Source: Candidatus Gottesmanbacteria bacterium
GTDB lineage: Bacteria > Patescibacteriota > Microgenomatia > UBA10105 > UBA927
Direction of reading: 5' to 3'
Assembly (NCBI GenBank): GCA_023245335.1
Contig: JAHFKK010000001.1
Coordinates: 872,019-936,018, forward strand
DNA length: 64,000 bases
Part shown: piece after piece, positions 6,108 through 57,118 of the stretch
Layout of the letters: each line of letters starts with the position of its first letter
How positions within the stretch are numbered: position 1 is the first letter of the stretch
Translations under genes and position numbers: made by a program
Notes under the pieces: model-generated
The model's database searches: none
What the model was told of the DNA's origin: nothing
The model's input: only the letters and a program-made list of their open reading frames with translations

Positions 6108-7931
6108 ATGTCACAAATCTTGAATGAAAAATTGGGAAAGCTCACGAAAGACGAACAGCATCTCTGGGCGCTTCGCCATACTGCCGAGCACATACTGCAT
6201 CAGGCGGTAAAGGATTTGTATCCGTCCATACTTCTTGCCATGGGCCCGGCGACGGATGAAGGATTTTATTTTGACTTCGATCACTCGCCAAAAGGAAAAA
6301 CGCCGGTTAAGATTTCCGACGAGGATTTACCGAGAATCGAGAAACGGATGCAGGAAATAATCGACGCCAACCTTCCGATGATACGGGAGGAAGTAGCCCC
6401 AGACGAAGCGGCCAAACTCTTTGCGGGCAACCCGTACAAAATGGAATGGATAGATGAAATCAAAAAGCGCGGAGAAAAAGTGACGATATACTGGACGGGT
6501 GAACCACATCAGCCCGGCTCCATGGTAGACCTCTGCGGCGGACCGCATGTCAAATCCACAGGGGAAGTGAGGGCGTTTAAGCTACTTTCGGTAGCCGGTG
6601 CATACTGGCATGGGAGTGAGAAAAACAAAATGCTCACGAGAATTTATGGGACGTGCTTTCCTTCTAAAAAAGAACTCGATGAACATCTTCATAATCTCGA
6701 AGAAGCCAAAAAAAGAGATCACCGCAAACTCGGTAAGGAACTGGGACTCTTCGTCTTCTCCGACCTGGTCGGTGCAGGACTGCCGCTCCTCACGCCGAAA
6801 GGCGCTACCATCCGACGGATACTCGAACGGTTCATCGTCGACGAGGAACTGCGTCGCGGATACCAGCACGTCGTCACCCCGCCGCTTGCGAAAGTAGATC
6901 TCTACCGTACCAGCGGGCACTACCCGTACTACAAAGACACGATGTATCCGCCGATGAAAGTCGACGATGACGAACTCATATTGCGTCCGATGACCTGTCC
7001 GCATCATTTCATGCTGTACAAATCACAGTCCAGGAGTTACCGGGATCTGCCGGTACGCTTCGCCGAGATTTCCCCGCAGTTCCGGTATGAAAAAAGCGGC
7101 GAACTCACGGGGCTTATGCGGGTCCGGATGTTTACGCTGACCGACGCGCACATCATAACACCGCCGAAAAAAGCCAAAGCTGAAGTTCTTGCCGTTTTGG
7201 ACCTCATTGACTACATAAACAAGTGTTTTGGGTTGGTCAAAGGCACGGATTACCGCTATCGGCTTTCTTTGGGGGATCGCAAGGACAACAAAAAATATTA
7301 CAAGGATGACGCTGCATGGGATAAAGCAGAGTCGGTACTTCGCGAGGTACTTGTCGAATCCAACGCGCCGTTTTTTGAAGCGCCCAACGAAGCGGCTTTT
7401 TATGGCCCCAAGATCGACGTCCAGATGAAAAACGTCTCGGGCAAAGAAGAAACCGCATTTACCGTACAGTATGACTTTGTCATGCCGAAACGGTTCGACC
7501 TCACCTATATCGACTCGGACGGCAAGGAAAAACAGCCGGTCGTCGTTCACCGGGCCAGTATGGGAGCTCTGGAGCGGACGATGGCGTTTCTCATCGAGCA
7601 CTATGCCGGGGCATTTCCGTTGTGGCTCGCGCCTATCCAAGCCGTCGTCATACCGATTGCTGAGCGTCATAACGATGGCGCTCAAATGATCGTTGATGCA
7701 TTGAAAGCCGCCGGCATCCGGGTCGAATCCGATACGCGGAGCGAACCTATGCAGGCTAAAGTACGAGATCATACGTTGCAAAAGGTGCCGTATTTGGCTA
7801 TAATCGGTGATAGAGAAATCGAAAACAAAACGGTTTCCGTTCGGAAACGGGGGATGAGGGAACTTCAAGCGCTTGCGCTTAGTGACTTCATCGCCCAATT
7901 AGTACACGAGATTGAACAGAAAACCAATTAA
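6108..7931 (+). CDS. thrS: Threonyl-tRNA synthetase (class II), lacking the N-terminal TGS domain.
   Basis: N-terminal HTAEHILH (HxxxH editing-domain zinc motif). Class II core motifs (FRYEKSGELTGLMRVRMFTLTDAH). C-terminal anticodon-binding domain. Followed by infC-rpmI-rplT-pheST as in many bacteria. Confidence 0.85.
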   Translation: MSQILNEKLGKLTKDEQHLWALRHTAEHILHQAVKDLYPSILLAMGPATDEGFYFDFDHSPKGKTPVKISDEDLPRIEKRMQEIIDANLPMIREEVAPDEAAKLFAGNPYKMEWIDEIKKRGEKVTIYWTGEPHQPGSMVDLCGGPHVKSTGEVRAFKLLSVAGAYWHGSEKNKMLTRIYGTCFPSKKELDEHLHNLEEAKKRDHRKLGKELGLFVFSDLVGAGLPLLTPKGATIRRILERFIVDEELRRGYQHVVTPPLAKVDLYRTSGHYPYYKDTMYPPMKVDDDELILRPMTCPHHFMLYKSQSRSYRDLPVRFAEISPQFRYEKSGELTGLMRVRMFTLTDAHIITPPKKAKAEVLAVLDLIDYINKCFGLVKGTDYRYRLSLGDRKDNKKYYKDDAAWDKAESVLREVLVESNAPFFEAPNEAAFYGPKIDVQMKNVSGKEETAFTVQYDFVMPKRFDLTYIDSDGKEKQPVVVHRASMGALERTMAFLIEHYAGAFPLWLAPIQAVVIPIAERHNDGAQMIVDALKAAGIRVESDTRSEPMQAKVRDHTLQKVPYLAIIGDREIENKTVSVRKRGMRELQALALSDFIAQLVHEIEQKTN

Positions 7932-9582: not shown

Positions 9583-11418
9583 ATGACTGATCTAATATAT
9601 CTTACGGACAGTTATCAAAAGGAGCTAAAAACCAAAGTGGTAAGCGCCGAAAAGCGCGGAAACCTTTGGGAGGTGGTACTCGCGTCAACCGTTTTCTATC
9701 CCGAAGGCGGGGGTCAGCCGTCAGATCGCGGAACCATAACAACGAAAAACGGTAAAGCTCACGTAAAACACGTACGAATGAAGGGAGAACTGGTTATCCA
9801 TGAGTGCACACTCGAAGGTATGCTAAAGCCGGACGACGATGTGCAATGCGTGATCGACTGGAACCTCCGCTATCATAACATGCGCGTCCACAGTGCCGGC
9901 CATATCGTGCATGAAGCAATCAAAAAAATCTCACCATCCCTTCTCCCGAAAAAAGGTCACCACATGGACTCTGCCTATATCGAATATGCCGGCAGTTTAC
10001 CGATAGACAAAAAATATGCCATCGAACAGGAATCAAATACTATCGTGGGAGACAAGCTTCCCCTAAAAACAGAGCTTGTCACACTTGCAGAACTCCAAAG
10101 ACGAAGCCCATGGGCACCCGAACACTTACCCAAAAACAAACCACTCCGTATATTATCGATCGGTGATTTGGCTCCTATCCCCGACGGCGGCACACAGGTA
10201 AAAACTAGCGATGAGGTCGGGCCCATCACAATCACCAATATAGATAACGCAGGAGACGTAGTTCGGGTATATTACAGTATACAAACTGAAGGACCGAAGG
10301 AAGCGAGTATTGAGTCGGAAAATTCGATGAAGGCTCCTGCATTTATCGGCCTTTTGCTGGAAGCACAACAAAATGCAATCCGTGAAATGGAAACGAGCGA
10401 TGCTTCCGCATTCGAACTCCGTTTGCAGCTCCTGGGACCTAAAAGCGAACTGACGGCGCTCACCCGTCAAATGCGGCAGGTCCCTGCGGCAGACCGTCAA
10501 CAGGTAGGCATAGTGGTGAATCAGGTAAAAAAGGCAATTGAGGAAAAACTGACCGAACGCAAAACTCCCTCTTCTTCGCCAAACAAGACACCGACCATTG
10601 GTACGGCACGCACCGACACATTTGACGTCACCATGCCCGGTATACGGCCGCCGGCTGGGCACCTCCATATAGTGAGCCAGGCAATCATGGAAATTACCCG
10701 CATTTTCGAACGCATCGGCTTCACCCGAGTGCGATACCCAGAAGCTGATTGGGACTGGTATGCATTCGAGTCTCTGAATATGCCCGTAAATCATCCAGCC
10801 CGAGATGAATGGGAGACATTTTTCATCGACTATCCCGGCAAACCGGGCAAAGACCCGCATAAACAAAAGATGGTTCTGACGCCACATACTTCAAACGGTC
10901 AGGTCCGCGAAATGGAAAAGGGGAACCTCCCCATACGCATGATCAATATAGCCAAATGTTACCGGCGCCAGATAGACGTCTCTCATACGCCCATGTTTCA
11001 CCAATTTGAGGGATTGTATGTCGATAAAAATGTCTCTATAGCGCACCTCAAAGGGGTCTTTGATTATTTCGCCGGAGCTTTTTTCGGGCCGGGCCGCAAA
11101 ACGCGCTTACGGCCGTTTCATTTCCAGTTTACCGAACCGTCATTTGAAGTAGACATCACCTGCGGCATCTGCAATGGCACCGGGATACTCGCAGGCGGCA
11201 CAAAATGCCGCTTATGTAAGTCCGGCTGGCTGGAACTGGGCGGCTCCGGCATGGTGCACCCAAACGTTCTTCGAAACGGCGGCATCGATCCTGACGTCTA
11301 CTCGGGATTTGCGTTCGGTTGGGGAGTAGAGCGGACCGCAATGATGAAATCAGGAACACAACTTGATGATATCCGATTGCTTTACGATAACGACGTACGG
11401 TTTTTGGAACAATTTTAA
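9583..11418 (+). CDS. pheS: Phenylalanyl-tRNA synthetase alpha subunit fused to an N-terminal AlaX-M-like (AlaRS/ThrRS-type editing, tRNA_SAD) domain.
   Basis: Residues 1-235 carry FYPEGGGQPSDRG (AlaRS/AlaX beta-barrel signature) and HSAGHIVH (HxxxH). The second zinc motif is degenerate (DGGTQ in place of CxxxH). Residues from about 260 onward are a complete PheS: coiled coil, HPARDEWETFF, motifs 2/3 FRxE and GFAFGWGVERTAMM. 611 aa versus the usual 340. Confidence 0.8.
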   Translation: MTDLIYLTDSYQKELKTKVVSAEKRGNLWEVVLASTVFYPEGGGQPSDRGTITTKNGKAHVKHVRMKGELVIHECTLEGMLKPDDDVQCVIDWNLRYHNMRVHSAGHIVHEAIKKISPSLLPKKGHHMDSAYIEYAGSLPIDKKYAIEQESNTIVGDKLPLKTELVTLAELQRRSPWAPEHLPKNKPLRILSIGDLAPIPDGGTQVKTSDEVGPITITNIDNAGDVVRVYYSIQTEGPKEASIESENSMKAPAFIGLLLEAQQNAIREMETSDASAFELRLQLLGPKSELTALTRQMRQVPAADRQQVGIVVNQVKKAIEEKLTERKTPSSSPNKTPTIGTARTDTFDVTMPGIRPPAGHLHIVSQAIMEITRIFERIGFTRVRYPEADWDWYAFESLNMPVNHPARDEWETFFIDYPGKPGKDPHKQKMVLTPHTSNGQVREMEKGNLPIRMINIAKCYRRQIDVSHTPMFHQFEGLYVDKNVSIAHLKGVFDYFAGAFFGPGRKTRLRPFHFQFTEPSFEVDITCGICNGTGILAGGTKCRLCKSGWLELGGSGMVHPNVLRNGGIDPDVYSGFAFGWGVERTAMMKSGTQLDDIRLLYDNDVRFLEQF

Positions 11419-11420
11419 CC

Positions 11421-13442
11421 ATGAACATCCTGGTACCCGATAGCTGGCTGAGAAAATTTTTGAAGACGAAGGCAACGCCATCGCAACTGAAGGAGTATCT
11501 CTCCTTGTGTGGTCCATCGGTTGAACGGATTTACGAGGAGTCAGGCGAGCCAGTGTATGACATAGAAATTACGACCAACCGCCCGGACGCAATGTCCGTC
11601 TTTGGCGTCGCCCGGGAAGCTTCCGTCATCCTGCCGCGGTTTGGTGTCGCAGCGACGCTCCTTCATGATCCCTATGCGACCAAATCTCTGAAGGATAAAA
11701 CGGTCAAATCGGATACCGCGCTTTCCGTCACGACTGATCCTTCCCTCAATCCGCGATGGACCAGTGTCATTATAAAAAATACTACGGTGAAGGACTCTCC
11801 GAAATGGCTTACGGACTGGCTGACCAAAACCGGCATCCGGCCCATAAATACCATCGTTGATGTCACGAACTACCTCATGCGGGCCTATGGCCAACCCGCA
11901 CACGCATTTGACTATGATCGCATCGGCAAAAAAAATGGCGTGCCGACCATGAAATTGCGCGCGTCCAAAAAGGGAGAACGGCTCACCACGCTCGATGGAA
12001 AAACTCATACGCTACCGGGTGACGACATCGTGATTGAAGACGGTACCGGAAGACTTATCGACCTATGCGGCATCATGGGAGGGGACAATTCAAGCATCAC
12101 TGACACGACGACAAGCGTTATCCTGTTTCTTCAGACCTACGATGCCGCCCATATCCGCAGGACATCCATGAAACTTGGGCACCGCACCGAGGCTGCATCG
12201 CTCTTTGAAAAAGGAGTAGACAGCGAGCTTGTTTTACCGGCTCTCCTTACCGGCATCACACTACTTAAAGAAATAGCAGGAGGCACGACTGAAGGTCCGA
12301 TCTATGATCTGTATCCCTCGCCGTACAAACCATATGCGGTATCCGTCAAGCACGACAAGGTACATAGCTATATCGGTAGAGCGTTATCTGACAAAGAAAT
12401 CACGGCGATCCTTTCTTCATTGGGTTTCGAACCCAAGATAACGAAAACAGACATAACGGTTTCCGTACCGAGTTTTCGCCGTGATGTCGCGCTCGATGTC
12501 GACGTCATCGAAGAAATTGCACGGATATACGGATACCACAACATACAAAATCGTCTGCCCCAGGGGGAGATGCCTTCGGCCGGTACTGATAACGAACTCA
12601 CGTGGGAAGAGGAAGTCAAAACGCGTCTCCGCGACTGGGGATTTACCGAACTTATTACGTACTCGATGATATCCGAAAAAACTATGGATCTGTTTGAGCA
12701 GGACAAAAATAAGGCGTACAAAATAAGCAATCCGCTATCAGTTGATTGGGTGTATATGCGCCCTCATCTCATACTAAGTATGCTCGATGTCGTACGGCAA
12801 AACCTGAATACACGGCCCCAATTACGGCTGTTCGAACTTGGAAACGTCTATAAATACCGCCACAACGACTTACCGCTTGAGGTGCCGACGCTTATGGTCA
12901 TTTGGACCGGACGTCATTTTCTGAAAGCAAAGGGGCTTGCCGAATCACTCCTCAATCTTTTCGGGCTTGACCCGGACGCCGTCTTTGCGGAACGGAGTGA
13001 CCAGCCTCTCGCATGGTACAACGACCGGAGACTATCCATCGGCCCATTCGGTTCGCTCGGGGAATTAAGCGACGAAAAACTTGCCGCTGCAGGAATTAAG
13101 GCACCGGTTACACGCGTGTATTTGGATTTTGCCATGCTCGCGGCTCACGCAAAATCCATGAAAAAATACATCACGGTGCCCAAGCATCCGCCGTCTGTTG
13201 AGGATCTTGCGTTTATCGTACCTGGCGGCTTTGCCATAGGTCCTCTCATGACGGCGCTCAAACACGCGGATCCGAAAGTATGCGCGGTAGAGCTTCTTGA
13301 CATACACGACAGCACACGCACGTTACACATCACCTATCTCGATCCCGCAAAAACGCTGACGAGCGATGATATTGCCGGGATCAGGAGAAAATTACTTGAT
13401 GTCGCGAAGAAAAAGTTTCACATCGACCTGAAAACGAATTAA
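11421..13442 (+). CDS. pheT: Phenylalanyl-tRNA synthetase beta subunit, short form lacking the B2/EMAP OB-fold tRNA-binding domain.
   Basis: The B1 domain (ITTNRPDAMSVFGVAREASV) begins near residue 40 with no intervening OB-fold. B3/B4, B5, B6/7 and the C-terminal FDX-ACB-like domain are present. 673 aa versus about 800. Confidence 0.8.
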   Translation: MNILVPDSWLRKFLKTKATPSQLKEYLSLCGPSVERIYEESGEPVYDIEITTNRPDAMSVFGVAREASVILPRFGVAATLLHDPYATKSLKDKTVKSDTALSVTTDPSLNPRWTSVIIKNTTVKDSPKWLTDWLTKTGIRPINTIVDVTNYLMRAYGQPAHAFDYDRIGKKNGVPTMKLRASKKGERLTTLDGKTHTLPGDDIVIEDGTGRLIDLCGIMGGDNSSITDTTTSVILFLQTYDAAHIRRTSMKLGHRTEAASLFEKGVDSELVLPALLTGITLLKEIAGGTTEGPIYDLYPSPYKPYAVSVKHDKVHSYIGRALSDKEITAILSSLGFEPKITKTDITVSVPSFRRDVALDVDVIEEIARIYGYHNIQNRLPQGEMPSAGTDNELTWEEEVKTRLRDWGFTELITYSMISEKTMDLFEQDKNKAYKISNPLSVDWVYMRPHLILSMLDVVRQNLNTRPQLRLFELGNVYKYRHNDLPLEVPTLMVIWTGRHFLKAKGLAESLLNLFGLDPDAVFAERSDQPLAWYNDRRLSIGPFGSLGELSDEKLAAAGIKAPVTRVYLDFAMLAAHAKSMKKYITVPKHPPSVEDLAFIVPGGFAIGPLMTALKHADPKVCAVELLDIHDSTRTLHITYLDPAKTLTSDDIAGIRRKLLDVAKKKFHIDLKTN

Positions 13443-19555: not shown

Positions 19556-19786
19556 ATGACTCCATTACCGAAACGCCGACATTCGACCAGGAGACAGGGG
19601 AAACGACAGGCGGCACTGTCGCTCAAGCTTCCCAGTCTTCTTACGTGCCCGAACTGCGGCAGTTTACGCTTGCCGCATCGGGTGTGTGAATACTGCGGCT
19701 ACTACGGCGGCAAACAAGTTATGACGGTAAAATCGAAGGACAAAAAGTCCGCCAAAGGCGGATCGGCCTCGGGCCGAAAAAAATAA
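19556..19786 (+). CDS. rpmF: 50S ribosomal protein L32.
   Basis: CPNCGSLRLPHRVCEYCGYYGGK is the L32 zinc-ribbon motif. Basic N-terminus. Confidence 0.75.
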   Translation: MTPLPKRRHSTRRQGKRQAALSLKLPSLLTCPNCGSLRLPHRVCEYCGYYGGKQVMTVKSKDKKSAKGGSASGRKK

Positions 19787-32461: not shown

Positions 32462-32471
32462 ATGAAAAATA

Positions 32472-32504
32472 AACCCGCCGGGTTGATTAGGTTCAAACCT
32501 CTTC
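32472..32504 (+). repeat. REP-like palindromic element, copy A (AACCCGCCGGGTTGATTAGGTTCAAACCTCTTC).
   Basis: Identical 33-mer to copy B. Lies in the intergenic spacer between the pilD stop and the pilin start. Confidence 0.8.
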
Positions 32505-32529
32505 TTCTAACCCGTTTTCCTACAATTTC

Positions 32530-33294
32530 TCAAAATAAGTGCCCCCACCAACCTAAAATCATTTGCCCCCAAAGCAGGGTCACCGCTATGCCGAAAATGA
32601 GAAATGGTCCAAAAGCGACCCGACTTCGCATCCCCGCTAACCTCAATATCATCAGTATGACACCGTACATGGCACCGGTCAAGAACGCCACATACAGGGC
32701 TATAATGACGCCCGGATAAGCTAACATTAGCCCTATGATTCCGGCTAGTTTGACGTCGCCAAACCCCATACCGCGCCGCCGGGTGATGCGATAGAGAAGG
32801 TAAAAAAATAGTCCCGACAGCACTCCGACTTCCAGATGCATGAGTTTATCGGCAGGGGAGAGGGATATGAATCGCGGGAGATAACCCACAAGACCTACAA
32901 CCAGCATACTGTCGGGGATAAAGTACGTTTTGACGTCTACCATAAAGATAACCAAAAAAGCCGACGAGACGACGAGAGCGCCGACAAATTCGATGACGCC
33001 GCGGGCGTCAGCCATCGGCAAAGCCGCCATATATATGAGAGTGTAGAGAACTGCTGTTGCTACCTCCATGAGGGGATATTGCCATGAAAGTCTTTTGTGA
33101 CAGCGGGCACATCGCCCGCGCTGGAACGCAAACGAGAGTAAAGGAATAAGTTCGTACCACCGGAGTATTTTTTTACAATGGTCGCAATGACTCCGTCCGT
33201 ATACGACATCCTCGCCTTTCGGCAGGCGATCAATAAGGACATTGAGAAACGAGCCCATGCATAGTCCCGCAATCCCAACCAAAAATGCATGCAT
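32530..33294 (-). CDS. pilD: Prepilin peptidase (A24 family).
   Basis: N-terminal CxxC...CxxC zinc motif (CDHCKK...CARCHK). Polytopic domain with GFGDVKL. Confidence 0.85.
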   Translation of the reverse strand: MHAFLVGIAGLCMGSFLNVLIDRLPKGEDVVYGRSHCDHCKKILRWYELIPLLSFAFQRGRCARCHKRLSWQYPLMEVATAVLYTLIYMAALPMADARGVIEFVGALVVSSAFLVIFMVDVKTYFIPDSMLVVGLVGYLPRFISLSPADKLMHLEVGVLSGLFFYLLYRITRRRGMGFGDVKLAGIIGLMLAYPGVIIALYVAFLTGAMYGVILMILRLAGMRSRVAFGPFLIFGIAVTLLWGQMILGWWGHLF

Positions 33295-33341
33295 ATAGGC
33301 TAGTGTCAGCTTTCCTTGTAGAGACTGTCAAGATATAGAAC

Positions 33342-33374
33342 AACCCGCCGGGTTGATTAGGTTCAAACCTCTTC
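33342..33374 (+). repeat. REP-like element, copy B, identical to copy A; the upstream flank of the RAYT gene.
   Basis: Exact 33/33 match to 32472-32504. Confidence 0.8.
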
Positions 33375-33375
33375 C

Positions 33376-33412
33376 TTGACATGCGTATCATAGATGATAC
33401 GTTAACATCATG
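33376..33412 (+). promoter_or_regulatory. Putative RAYT promoter (TTGACA -35) overlapped by a perfect 18-bp palindrome CGTATCATAGATGATACG (33384-33401), a candidate operator.
   Basis: TTGACA at 33376-33381. The palindrome occupies the spacer. A weak -10 (TACGTT) lies 6 nt before the ATG at 33410. Confidence 0.45.
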
Positions 33413-34087
33413 GGTTCCCCGCGATCAGTAAATTTTCGTAACGACTATATTTATCACGTCTTCAATCGCGGTGTAGAAAGACGCAACTTATTCCTTTCCA
33501 CCCGGGACAGCGAACGATTTATCATGCTTCTCGAATATTATCGATTCTTAGATATTCCAAAAAGCTTTTCTCACTACCTCAATCTCTCAATAGAAGAGCG
33601 CCAAATCTACTACGATACAATCCAAAAACTCCCTCTTACGATTGATATCCTGGCTTATTGCCTCATGCCTAATCATTTTCATCTACTCGTACGCCAAAAG
33701 GGTGATCTCGGAATCATAAAGGCAATCTCAAATATCGCAAACGGCTATGCGAAATATTTCAATGCCAAAAATAAGCGGGTAGGCCCATTGTTCCAAGGAC
33801 CTTTTAAGGCGGTGCGGATAGAGTCTGATGAACAACTCCTTCACGTCTCCCGATATATTCACCTGAATCCTGTCGTCAGCGGAATAATTCCCGAAAAGGA
33901 GCTTTTATCTTATCCTTGGTCATCTTTATCTTCTTATGTCGGCAAGCAACCATCGCGATGGGTAGAAGAACGAACCGTGCTTTCTCATTTCAAAAATTGT
34001 CAGGAATATCTGACGTTCGTATGTGATCAAATCAGCTTCGCTAAGGAATTACAGAAGATAAAACATATCATTCTAGAAGATGTTTGA
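33410..34087 (+). CDS. REP-associated tyrosine transposase (RAYT), an IS200-like HUH/Y1 transposase.
   Basis: YHVFNRGVERRNLF. HUH motif in YCLMPNHFHLLV. YAKYFN, GPLFQGPFK and RYIHLNPV are typical of the Transposase_17/RAYT family. Flanked by inverted REP copies. Confidence 0.8.
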   Translation: MGSPRSVNFRNDYIYHVFNRGVERRNLFLSTRDSERFIMLLEYYRFLDIPKSFSHYLNLSIEERQIYYDTIQKLPLTIDILAYCLMPNHFHLLVRQKGDLGIIKAISNIANGYAKYFNAKNKRVGPLFQGPFKAVRIESDEQLLHVSRYIHLNPVVSGIIPEKELLSYPWSSLSSYVGKQPSRWVEERTVLSHFKNCQEYLTFVCDQISFAKELQKIKHIILEDV

Positions 34088-36284
34088 ACCTAATCAACCC
34101 GCCGGGTTTATTTTCCGCGCATGGAAGGATATCGGGGCCCTCGTCCTCATCGGTGTTGTCGTCGTGATATTTTTTTTCCGTCTGTTTTTCCCAATCCCGA
34201 AACTCATCATGACACCGGACTTCGGCCGGAGTGATGCGTGGTCCTTTAGCTTCTCGACAAAGTATATGCTGGCAGAAAATCTGAAACACGGCACCTGGCC
34301 CCTCTGGTCGCGGCTCGTAGGTGACGGGTTTCCTATCCAGGCCGAAGGACAAATCGGAACATTCTTTCTCCCGAATCTCTTGCTATTCCGGCTATTTGAT
34401 GTCGTCACCGCCTACAACATCGCACTCCTCCTTACCTTTGTGACAGGGGGAGTAGGCATGTATGCCTGGTTACGACTCACGAAATTTCCGGTCGCGGTAT
34501 CGCTTTTTAGCGCCCTTGCATTTACGTTTTCCGGGCTCATGGTACCCCACCTTACCCATATCACACTCCTCCAGGGATTTACGTTACTCCCAGCTCTCAT
34601 GGCGATTACGTATCTTTTTGCCAAACGACCGTCCCCATTTCTCATGTGCGTGTTTGCCTTGGTCGCAAGTCAGCAATTTCTTGCCGGATTTCCGCAGGCG
34701 TCCTTTGTCACGCTCATATTTACGTCCGCCTATTTCATCTGGATCATACGGACCGAACGCCACAAGGTATCCTGCGTATTCTATTACACCGGCGCACTCC
34801 TTCTCATGGGACTTTTATCCATGGTACAGTTGCTGCCGTCGAAAGAATTTCTCACCACAATTCTCAATGCGGATGGTTTTTCTCTCTATGACGCATCGTT
34901 TTATTCATTCCCATTCCGGAATATCCTCACGCTCATCTATCCGTTTATCTTTGGGTCACCCGCCAACGGATCATACATGCAGGCCAACATATACGGAGGC
35001 AATGTCTTCTGGGAAAACGTCGCCTACATCGGCATCATTCCGACGTTCAGTATTTGCGGTCTCCTGTTTTATGATCACCGGAAATTTTTTCGGGCTCCTC
35101 AGATATTTTTTGCGCTCTCCGCATGTGTTGCGTTTCTTCTTATGACGGGACGGCACTCACCCGTATATTTCATTTATTCGTTCTGGCCGTTTGAACTCTT
35201 CCGCGTTCCATCCCGGTTTATCTGGATATTCGTGACCTCGCTTCTCGTTCTATCGACCGCAGGTCTTCATAAACTCTTGCGTACTATCCGCCCTGCGGCC
35301 GGAAAGGTACTGCTTCTTACTATCTGTGTACTTATATCAGGGTACTTTGGCGTACGATATTGGTGGAATTATCACATATTGGAACCGGCAAAAAATGTGC
35401 TTAGTGCGCCTGCATTTGCCCGTTATGTGAGTCCCGACGACCGGACAGACGGACTATTCACGACAGAACGCTATTCTTCTGAATTCATAAGAAGCGGTTG
35501 GACGCACCCCGAGGTATACCAGCTTTTTCAAAATACATTTCCGGCAAACGGCAATGTCATATGGCATATAGATGCACACGAAGTGGCTTCCGGCCGGTCT
35601 CTGAGACGAGCATCCATTATCGACAGCCTCATCGGCGTCAGTGAAACCATAGATGATACGCGGACCACAGCAACAGTGAGCGCATTCGGAGAAAAAGTCC
35701 TGAGCCTCACGGGAACGTCGAAACTTATAAGCAATGTGCCGGATCTTCGGACGACGTTTGTGCCAATGGCTACCATAAGCGCCGGAATCCAGCATATGAC
35801 CATGTATCAAAATCCGTCAGCTGTGCCGAAGGCGTATGTGGCGAGCGATGTCCGATTGGCGCATTCTGTCCAGGATGTAGGAATGATACTCAAGGACACG
35901 ACGTTTATTCCTGGGGCGTCCGTCATACTCGAATCATCGCCCTCGGCAGTATTATCAGACTCACCGGTATCGATACAACGAGTGCGTGAACGGGATACCG
36001 AGGAAATCTTTCGGGTCACCGGCGGAACCACCAATCAGATGTTTGTCGTAAACGAAACCTATTACCCCGGCTGGAAAGCATATATTGATGGGACAGATGC
36101 TCCCATCCTTCCCGCAAACATCCGATACCGTGCCATCTTCCTCCCCAAAGGTGACCATACGGTACGATTTGTCTACGACCCGCCATTTTTTCGAGTAGGG
36201 TTATGGATCAGCATCTTGTCTTATGCGGGTGTCATTGGATGGGCATTTCTGTCTGCTTTTTTGTCTTCTCGTACTCGGCCATGA
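34080..36284 (+). CDS. YfhO-family polytopic membrane protein (glycosylation-associated) with a C-terminal extracytoplasmic domain.
   Basis: SDAWSFSFSTKYMLAENLKHGTWPLWSRLVGDGFPIQAEGQIGTFFLPNLL matches the conserved YfhO N-terminal region. More than 10 TM helices. The first 12 codons are encoded by REP copy C. Confidence 0.6.
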   Translation: MFEPNQPAGFIFRAWKDIGALVLIGVVVVIFFFRLFFPIPKLIMTPDFGRSDAWSFSFSTKYMLAENLKHGTWPLWSRLVGDGFPIQAEGQIGTFFLPNLLLFRLFDVVTAYNIALLLTFVTGGVGMYAWLRLTKFPVAVSLFSALAFTFSGLMVPHLTHITLLQGFTLLPALMAITYLFAKRPSPFLMCVFALVASQQFLAGFPQASFVTLIFTSAYFIWIIRTERHKVSCVFYYTGALLLMGLLSMVQLLPSKEFLTTILNADGFSLYDASFYSFPFRNILTLIYPFIFGSPANGSYMQANIYGGNVFWENVAYIGIIPTFSICGLLFYDHRKFFRAPQIFFALSACVAFLLMTGRHSPVYFIYSFWPFELFRVPSRFIWIFVTSLLVLSTAGLHKLLRTIRPAAGKVLLLTICVLISGYFGVRYWWNYHILEPAKNVLSAPAFARYVSPDDRTDGLFTTERYSSEFIRSGWTHPEVYQLFQNTFPANGNVIWHIDAHEVASGRSLRRASIIDSLIGVSETIDDTRTTATVSAFGEKVLSLTGTSKLISNVPDLRTTFVPMATISAGIQHMTMYQNPSAVPKAYVASDVRLAHSVQDVGMILKDTTFIPGASVILESSPSAVLSDSPVSIQRVRERDTEEIFRVTGGTTNQMFVVNETYYPGWKAYIDGTDAPILPANIRYRAIFLPKGDHTVRFVYDPPFFRVGLWISILSYAGVIGWAFLSAFLSSRTRP
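34081..34113 (-). repeat. REP-like element, copy C (inverted), overlapping the RAYT stop and the annotated YfhO-like start.
   Basis: Its reverse complement, GGAAAATAAACCCGGCGGGTTGATTAGGTTCAAACATCTTC, matches the extended copy A. Confidence 0.75.
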
Positions 36285-50302: not shown

Positions 50303-50337
50303 ACAACCCGGCGGGTTAAATAGGTTTAAACCTCTTC
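50303..50337 (+). repeat. REP-like element, copy D (diverged: AACCCGGCGGGTTAAATAGGTTTAAACCTCTTC).
   Basis: 28/33 identity with copies A and B. The core palindrome is flipped (GCC to GGC). Confidence 0.6.
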
Positions 50338-56116: not shown

Positions 56117-57118
56117 CTATATGTGATGAAACTTATCGTGGATTTGTTTCAACTGCGGGTTCGTGACATGGGTATAAATCTGCGTCGTCGAGACATTTTT
56201 GTGACCCAAGAGTTCTTGGATCGCCCGCAGATCTGCGCCATTTCCCAAGAGATCTGTCGCAAACGTGTGCCGCAACCCGTGCGGCGTAATTTTGATCGGG
56301 AGCTTCGCCTTTTTGGCGTACTTTTCGACGAGGCGCTGGACGCTTCGCGCCGTCAGGCGGATGGATTCTCCGGTCTTGTCATCCTCATCGGGTTTTTTAC
56401 CGGAATAGCGGATAAAAATCGGTTTCAAATCATCCTCACGGCTTCCGATATATCGCTTCAGCCAATCGGCTGACGCGTCGGATAAAAATACGACGCGTAG
56501 TCTGCGGCCTTTCCCGATGACGCCAAACTCCCGGCGATCGAGATTTATCCCGTCACGGTTAAGCGCCACGAGTTCCGAAACCCGCAGTCCGGTAGAAAAA
56601 AGCACTTCCAGAATTGCTTTATCTCGTAACCCCTCGGGCGTAGAAATTTCCGGCATGTTCAGGAGCCGGTCCACTTGCTCCCGATCCAAAAATTTTATCG
56701 AGTGACTTTCCGCTTTCGGCAAATCAATTTTGTCCGGCGTAATCGAGGGGATATCGCGCTTGGCGAGATATTTGAGAAAACTCCGAAGCGCTATCAGATG
56801 ATAATTTTGCGTGACTCGCTTGAGCGTCATGCCGTGCGGATCAGAAAAACGCGCTAAATATAACCGGTATTGCCGGATGCTTTCAGACGTAATGTCATTC
56901 ACCTTCGCTGAAGCTACGGTGGACAAGGAAGTTTTTCCGCCAGAGGCGGATCGGCCTCCGGCCGACACATCAGCTCCGGCAGGGGAGGGGATTTGGCCTG
57001 TCAGAAAGGCCAAAAACCTAGTCAGATAATGTTTGTAATTGCGAATCGTCAATTGCGAAACATTTCGTTCAATTTCGAGATATTCCAAAAATTCTTTCAG
57101 AAGCTTTTCGAGATCCAT
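56117..57118 (-). CDS. Tyrosine recombinase (XerC/XerD/integrase family) with a low-complexity insertion in the N-terminal domain.
   Basis: N-terminal SAM-like core-binding domain (LEYLEIERNVSQLTIRNYKHYL). C-terminal HGLRHTFATDLL...LLGHKNVSTTQIYTHV (R..HxxR..Y). Insertion PSPAGADVSAGGRSASGGKTS. Confidence 0.8.
   Translation of the reverse strand: MDLEKLLKEFLEYLEIERNVSQLTIRNYKHYLTRFLAFLTGQIPSPAGADVSAGGRSASGGKTSLSTVASAKVNDITSESIRQYRLYLARFSDPHGMTLKRVTQNYHLIALRSFLKYLAKRDIPSITPDKIDLPKAESHSIKFLDREQVDRLLNMPEISTPEGLRDKAILEVLFSTGLRVSELVALNRDGINLDRREFGVIGKGRRLRVVFLSDASADWLKRYIGSREDDLKPIFIRYSGKKPDEDDKTGESIRLTARSVQRLVEKYAKKAKLPIKITPHGLRHTFATDLLGNGADLRAIQELLGHKNVSTTQIYTHVTNPQLKQIHDKFHHI

Follow-up and report, generated by a model that had tools for sequence, protein, structure and literature searches.

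What is the small unit that lies in a type IV pilus locus of a Candidatus Gottesmanbacteria bacterium, between pilD (32530-33294, minus strand) and a YfhO-family gene, where a gene for an HUH tyrosine (Y1) enzyme is bracketed by inverted copies of a 33-bp repeat? The stretch analysed, referred to here as the window, comprises 64,000 nucleotides (GenBank assembly GCA_023245335.1, contig JAHFKK010000001.1, positions 872,019 to 936,018 of the forward strand). An original prediction, made from the letters alone, had read the unit as part of a family of repetitive extragenic palindromic (REP)-like elements with a REP-associated tyrosine transposase (RAYT), organised like a REPtron. We propose that it is probably a TIRtron, that is, an apparently single-copy gene for a RAYT-like Y1 HUH endonuclease (TnpA-Y1 subclass 2.1, RAYT group 1, TIRYT) that forms, together with its cognate 33-bp terminal inverted repeats (TIRs), a cassette of about 770 bp. 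The order of its parts is inverted repeat, TTGACA promoter, Y1 gene and a second inverted repeat that runs across the stop codon:

33342..33374, plus strand: copy B, the left terminal inverted repeat, with the outer palindrome AACCCGCCGGGTT at 33342-33354 and the inner box TAGGTTCAAACCTCTTC; its position and orientation are the same in related loci.
33376..33403, plus strand: predicted Y1 promoter, abutting the left repeat (TTGACA at 33376-33381, a 16-nt spacer, TACGTT at 33398-33403, then 6 nt to the ATG).
33410..34087, plus strand: gene for the Y1 HUH tyrosine nuclease/transposase, RAYT-like, of subclass 2.1/TIRYT type (225 amino acids; HUH motif H89-F-H91; candidate catalytic tyrosine Y149 in RYIHLNP).
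34076..34108, minus strand: copy C, the right terminal inverted repeat, which encodes the final Y1 codons (E-D-V-stop) and holds the ATG of the YfhO gene; its palindrome, at 34096-34108, is followed by TATTTT.

The open reading frame at 33410-34087 encodes a real HUH/Y1 protein. Pfam PF01797 (Y1_Tnp) matches it at 34.9 bits against a cut-off of 23, and a word-seeded database search returns at least 7,877 relatives at E <= 0.001, the best of which are about 225 residues long and, where named, come from Patescibacteria, among them Gottesmanbacteria and Levybacteria. Across 37 aligned homologs, H89, H91 and Y149 are invariant, and the NHFH motif, the FQ pair (in LFQG), Y149 in its RYIHLNP context and W170-S171-S172 are invariant or nearly so. 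The features first noticed in this gene (an HUH motif in NHFH, the tyrosine context and RYIHLNPV) are thus borne out, as is its family membership on profile search. With a profile built from these homologs, the top-ranked PDB sequence is E. coli TnpA-REP (4er8), at a marginal E-value (0.015) and with the HUH and YIxxNPV motifs aligned; a single-sequence phmmer search of the PDB gave no meaningful match, and 4er8 was reached by profile and predicted structure only. The AlphaFold model of the protein (predicted local distance difference test score 91.4) has a helical C-terminal extension at residues 160-224. Its best Foldseek match is 4er8, in which TnpA-REP is bound to a REP hairpin (E 1.5e-6; template modelling score 0.73 on target), and the TnpA proteins of IS608 and ISDra2 come next. 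The NHFH, FQ, YIHLNP and WSS motifs agree with those listed for subclass 2.1 in Table 1 of PMC6006769, an assignment made by comparing motifs with that table and not with the authors' hidden Markov models.

The repeat itself is sharply delimited in the window. The 33-mer (AACCCGCCGGGTTGATTAGGTTCAAACCTCTTC) occurs without mismatch on the plus strand at 32472-32504 and 33342-33374, as had been reported. The inverted copy placed at 34081 is real, but it lies at 34076-34108 on the minus strand and has 2 mismatches; the diverged copy placed at 50303 is likewise real, with 29 of 33 positions identical (88%, 4 mismatches), but spans 50305-50337 on the plus strand. The inverted match also extends into the flank of copy A, with 40 nt alike at 95% identity between copies A and C (32466-32505 and 34075-34114) and an AAAATAA flank common to both. 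No match to the 33-mer appeared in any of 100 shuffled windows. A weight matrix for position-weight scanning, made from 23 repeat copies, scores the four window copies at 54-56 bits, where the best score from 20 shuffled windows is 8.7 bits, and finds no weaker or diverged fifth copy in the window. Each of the four is intergenic or at a gene end, as had been stated. Copy B is situated between the divergent starts of pilD and the Y1 gene, and the two copies outside the cassette are solo:

32472..32504, plus strand: copy A, 25 nt downstream of the pilD stop codon and 10 nt upstream of the ATG of the major pilin gene, both genes being on the minus strand; its outer flank is AAAATA, as in copy C.
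50305..50337, plus strand: copy D, in the convergent spacer of gyrA and a SIMPL/DUF541 gene, abutting the stop codon of the latter.

Another repeat in the window, a 30-nt 'double palindrome' at 19748-19777 and 56936-56965 (93% identical), codes for an S-A-x-G-G-S-A-S-G peptide motif near protein termini and is not a DNA element.

The arrangement of repeat, gene and repeat is not peculiar to this genome. It recurs at nine distinct related loci in other genomes, and the claim that copies B and C flank the gene in inverted orientation is upheld by an architecture conserved in relatives. The full layout, with inverted repeats on both sides of a Y1 homolog about 700 nt apart, is present at L004/L009 (one sequence from two collections), L005, L006, L007, L014, L021 and L025. 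Partial layouts are found at L018, where the left copy is cut at the contig end, and at L011, where the 3' part of the gene and the right copy alone are present. Both cassette ends carry terminal inverted repeats of 33-40 nt, and at every locus with the right copy this copy encodes the C-terminus of the Y1 protein, L-E-E/D-V-stop.

Comparison of more distant relatives suggests which part of the repeat matters. Y1 homologs of about 50% identity keep the layout, and their outer palindrome differs: it is AACACC-CTCCA-GGTGTT at L015, AACCT-GGA-AGGTT at L019 and CAGGTGG-N10-CCACCTG at L023. The repeat copy of L010, a short contig without a Y1 gene, has a CACCCG-T-CGGGTG palindrome. Across these subtypes a terminal stem of 5-7 bp is retained while its sequence has changed, which is hairpin covariation. 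This retained stem is the main evidence that the hairpin or palindrome would be the feature recognised. Loci with only 31-39% identity at Y1 third codon positions share 79-91% identity in the non-coding left repeat; an identity so far above that of third codon positions points to strong purifying selection on the repeat, and the left repeat looks like a selected cis site. A second palindrome, AGGTTYAAACCT, was considered as a hairpin and rejected, as the pair at positions 20/28 varies without compensation among copies.

At two of the divergent loci, L015 (9944-9960 and 10688-10704; loop CTCCA) and L019 (about 9935-9947 and about 10705-10717; loop GGA), the hairpin loop is in direct orientation at the two ends, and the inner box and the rest of the repeat are inverted. 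Recognition of a single DNA strand at the two ends would predict such an orientation, and it resembles the left and right ends of IS608, where the strand orientation is also the same. It hints that one strand may be used at both ends of the cassette.

Each repeat has at its outer tip a short palindrome capable of forming a hairpin in single-stranded DNA and, inside it, a conserved box. The left repeat abuts the predicted -35 element of the Y1 promoter, and the right one runs across the stop codon. The biochemistry of IS608 TnpA and E. coli TnpA-REP suggests, as the most likely mechanism, that the Y1 protein would bind the terminal hairpin on single-stranded DNA and would cut and rejoin DNA beside this hairpin via Tyr149. 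Over evolutionary time, the cassette may have been relocated occasionally and a few solo repeats, copies A and D, may have been seeded. The cassette, the solo repeats or both could be mobile at present.

The position of the promoter is also shared among loci. A TTGACA-like hexamer immediately after the left repeat, a 16-18-nt spacer and a -10-like hexamer are found at all eight Y1 loci compared (the window, L004, L005, L006, L007, L014, L021 and L025), and the -10-like hexamer is 6 nt from the start codon at seven of them and about 13 nt at L006. From this spacing we infer that the promoter abuts the repeat and that the Y1 mRNA is probably leaderless; autoregulation by Y1 protein bound at the repeat is possible. 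We found no earlier description in the literature of a TIR-abutting promoter and leaderless layout. On L010, whose contig has no Y1 gene, TTGACC follows the repeat copy.

Has the cassette moved? Locus L021 and the window share a collinear run of 11 genes (YfhO, TMEM260-like, pilin, PilC, PilT, PilB, holB, gyrB, H+-PPase, gyrA and folD; 27-70% amino acid identity), and the L021 cassette lies between holB and gyrB. The holB-gyrB spacer of the window (117 bp) has no trace of the repeat. This difference of site in a collinear genome indicates that the cassette changed place within a conserved block, and at other loci it occupies unrelated gene contexts; judged by gene order, the cassette has moved. 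The exact window Y1 protein was found on 4 contigs, with the same neighbours at all places listed or grouped as similar, and the homologs examined each have a single context across samples. Moreover, the Y1 divergence between the window and L021 (51%) falls among the values for adjacent host proteins (27-70%), which suggests long residence. These observations would fit an element that is present once, has been resident for long and moves rarely. As for an empty site in a close relative, the YfhO homolog nearest to that of the window is only 51% identical, and the intergenic DNA of L021 is not alignable with the window. Two further ideas were tried and rejected: carriage by phage, with no repeat match and no Y1 relative in viral contigs, and a conserved 5' tetranucleotide or target-site duplication, with outer flanks that vary (TA, TC, AC and others) and no duplication seen.

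How abundant is the repeat? Our count in this genome covers 81.4 kb of contiguous DNA (L029, the window and L027, all from the same source contig), in which there are four copies and no half-sites; the 64-kb window holds one Y1 gene. Exact-pattern scans gave 3 matches in GTDB representative genomes and 8 in JGI metagenomes. Each of the three GTDB genomes has one matching stretch, at the Y1 locus only; the pattern recovers roughly 40% of known copies by our own count, which makes large families unlikely in these three genomes. Half of the eight JGI stretches carry a Y1 gene, and the other four (L008, L010, L012 and L013) have solo copies only. On these counts, the repeat family appears to be a low-copy one, unlike REP families with their tens to hundreds of members. 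Solo copies are all intergenic, both in the window and on the four JGI contigs, and most of those with clear neighbours, including copies A and D, lie 4-70 nt after a stop codon in right-end orientation. In a multiple alignment, the conserved sequence around solo copies amounts to about 35 nt; an extended homology between copies A and D was rejected on this alignment.

Three other palindromic arrangements were seen near members of this family. About 170 nt upstream of the cassette in L025, at 9831-9863 (and identically in L026, at 1606-1638), there is a perfect palindrome of 16+16 nt that consists of two inverted copies of the inner box (TAGCTTTACACATC), a REPIN-like doublet of half-sites. In L010, at 114-240, an inverted pair of AACGAGGTGTCACC copies lies on either side of the solo copy, which looks as though it had been inserted in, or were framed by, a different palindromic repeat. 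L015 has two intergenic 27-nt repeats (TACNCCCTCCAAGTGTTAATTATAATT, 96% alike) at 6874-6900 and 11444-11470, which are like the terminal hairpin of that locus and end in a TATAAT-like motif.

Comparison with known systems makes clear why we prefer a different label from the one first given. For TnpA-Y1 subclass 2.1, Quentin et al. (2018, PMC6006769) give NH[YF]H, FQ and Y[IV]HLNP as motifs, together with a median length of 238 amino acids and a C-terminal extension with a conserved serine, and no REPs were found; according to them, the subclass corresponds to the TIRYT/TIRtron that Di Nocera et al. described (2013, PMC3733652). TIRtrons are RAYT-like genes between terminal inverted repeats, some of them self-complementary or reaching into the 3' end of the gene, in families that range from absent to moderately abundant (PMC3733652), and for RAYT group 1 the flanking 16-mers occur about 12 times genome-wide, per replicon (Bertels et al. 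2017, PMC5581495). The cassette resembles these elements in having a Y1 gene flanked by terminal inverted repeats and not by GTAG REPs, in a repeat that overlaps the 3' end of the gene or is self-complementary, in an apparently low to moderate number of flanking-repeat copies, and in a protein with the NH[YF]H, FQ and Y[IV]HLNP motifs, about 230 residues and a C-terminal extension with conserved serines (225 residues and W170-S171-S172 here). It differs in its host, which belongs to the Patescibacteria (Microgenomates-like), in a new TIR sequence that lacks GGGGWSAS and in the absence of a Pfam DnaA_C/HTH C-terminal domain. The family assignment of the original prediction was therefore close: the RAYT-like Y1 protein, the inverted bracketing and the solo intergenic copies stand, whereas the missing GT[AG]G, the weak hairpin, the low copy number in the DNA scanned and an NF047646 score below its cut-off make TIR-flanked RAYT relative, or low-copy TIRtron/TIRYT cassette (PMC3733652, PMC6006769), the better description. 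Our literature search returned no account of elements of the RAYT or TIRYT type from Patescibacteria, and the cassette would appear to be a known kind of element in a lineage for which no published account was found.

Several points weigh against the TIRtron reading or the hairpin recognition that we attach to it. The stem of the hairpin is only 5-6 bp, its DNA folding energy (-4.6 to -5.5 kcal/mol; z -0.8 to -1.7) is no better than that of shuffles, and RNA folding of the repeat gives z-scores of -0.07 to -1.6 versus shuffles; together with the variable flanks, this disposes of the expectation of a REP hairpin with a conserved 5' tetranucleotide. The GGGGWSAS motif, common in published TIRs, is not in this TIR. 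The NCBIfam model NF047646 (REP_Tyr_transpos, the RayT equivalog) scores the Y1 protein at 47.3 bits, below its cut-off of 80. No C-terminal helix-turn-helix (HTH) domain (Bac_DnaA_C, HTH_23 or HTH_28) was found, Pfam yielding Y1_Tnp alone at E <= 0.01; this absence is not decisive because such a domain is known for part of subclass 2.1 only and is heterogeneous within it (PMC6006769). Single-copy status of the gene refers to the 64-kb window, and the number of solo copies to the 81.4 kb scanned. The solo repeats could be relics of decayed cassettes and not products of transposition.

Would a canonical REPtron explain the locus better, with a RAYT that amplifies an abundant REP/REPIN family, spread over the whole genome, to which its flanking REPs belong? 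Inverted flanking copies accompanied by solo intergenic ones are what such a system would leave, a location just after stop codons, shared by most solo copies of clear context, is frequent for REPs, and the Y---NP motif and the best structural match, E. coli TnpA-REP, point the same way. Indeed, the E. coli REPtron (TnpA-REP/RAYT YafM with REP/BIME; 4er8) resembles the cassette in that its gene lies between inverted copies of its cognate repeat and that further copies are scattered outside genes, as well as in the aligned HUH and YIxxNPV motifs of the best profile and structural match. However, E. coli REPs have a GTAG foot, a long imperfect hairpin, hundreds of copies and inverted doublets, and the E. 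coli protein, at 165 amino acids, lacks the 70-residue C-terminal extension of the window protein. Here, no GT[AG]G adjoins the palindrome on either strand, where the flanking bases vary between copies, and the repeats do not form inverted doublets (REPINs). The four copies in 81.4 kb, the Y1 locus as sole match in each of the three GTDB genomes, the sub-threshold NF047646 score and the fit to a subclass for which no REPs were found (PMC6006769) all argue against this explanation, which we consider quite improbable. An ordinary, currently active IS200/IS605-type insertion sequence that happens to be present here in one copy is also unlikely. The unit is compact (0.77 kb) and has its own promoter, it occupies another site in a collinear genome and its context differs among the loci examined; the HUH/Y1 fold and small end hairpins, likely recognition sites, are shared with IS608 and ISDra2 TnpA and their ends. 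Yet the YIHLNP motif departs from the Y---Q motif of IS200 transposases (PMC6006769 Table 1), and IS200/IS605 elements are present as multiple identical copies without terminal inverted repeats, frequently with tnpB; the window shows none of these traits, and no tnpB adjoins the Y1 gene. The single context of the exact protein and of each homolog looked up, a divergence to L021 that falls within the host-protein range, and the lack of relatives in viral contigs likewise speak against such an insertion sequence.

The 33-mer might instead be a host regulatory signal, such as a terminator, operator or promoter element, that lies next to the Y1 gene by coincidence. A consensus scan calls copies A, B and C terminator-like, T-rich tails follow several right repeats, and the solo copies of clear context mostly share one orientation just behind a stop codon. 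An intrinsic terminator was nevertheless rejected, since neither DNA nor RNA folding of a stem this short exceeds shuffles, and a promoter (TTGAAC-N17-TTTATT, readable when copies A and C are taken in antisense) was rejected as a general explanation because copy D, uncalled by the consensus scan, sits between converging genes, where a promoter role is excluded. The place of copy B between divergent gene starts, that of left repeats upstream of the gene and a repeat sequence that varies together with the Y1 protein subtype also speak against a host signal. No Rfam family, and no tRNA gene, matched anywhere in the 64-kb window (1-64000). We regard a host signal as very unlikely. A bolder extension of the TIRtron reading is that the family of ~225-residue Y1 proteins and their hairpin-plus-box inverted repeats would constitute an autonomous class of 0.77-kb transposons, combining an HUH tyrosine enzyme with true terminal inverted repeats and with a leaderless promoter under the control of the repeat, which may still be reshaping gene starts and ends in the streamlined genomes of Patescibacteria, the YfhO start codon being an example; this we hold to be doubtful.

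The effect of the cassette on its neighbours is clearest at its right end, where the following gene begins within the repeat:

34080..36284, plus strand: YfhO-family membrane protein gene, whose annotated ATG (34080) and first ~10 codons (MFEPNQPAGF) are repeat-derived, with an 8-nt overlap with the Y1 stop.

Eight YfhO homologs are without this N-terminal extension, their first residues being MKxxW(R/K)D at a point about 10 residues further on; by this comparison, the right repeat supplies an in-frame ATG and some 10 extra codons to YfhO. At a larger scale, the window from 22133 to 42872 holds type IV pilus genes (PilM, several pilins and PilD, followed by a pilin, PilC, PilT and PilB) interrupted by YfhO-family and TMEM260-like/PMT_2 glycosyltransferase-like genes. 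The suggestion that the pilus locus was remodelled by the element is not supported, because in L021 the YfhO and TMEM260-like genes adjoin the pilus genes with no cassette beside them. The adjacency of these genes, in L021 as in the window, hints at a possible role in pilin glycosylation. For annotation, the message is that the pilus locus has a small insertion, without rearrangement.

The locus presents an element that can rewrite its neighbours, as seen in the start codon and N-terminal extension of YfhO and in a copy placed directly before the major pilin gene. Beyond this genome, the Patescibacteria family offers a clean test case for TIR-flanked RAYT relatives (subclass 2.1, the largest RAYT group): a very compact cassette with a sharply defined 33-bp site that is evidently under purifying selection, a terminal hairpin kept across subtypes and few solo copies.

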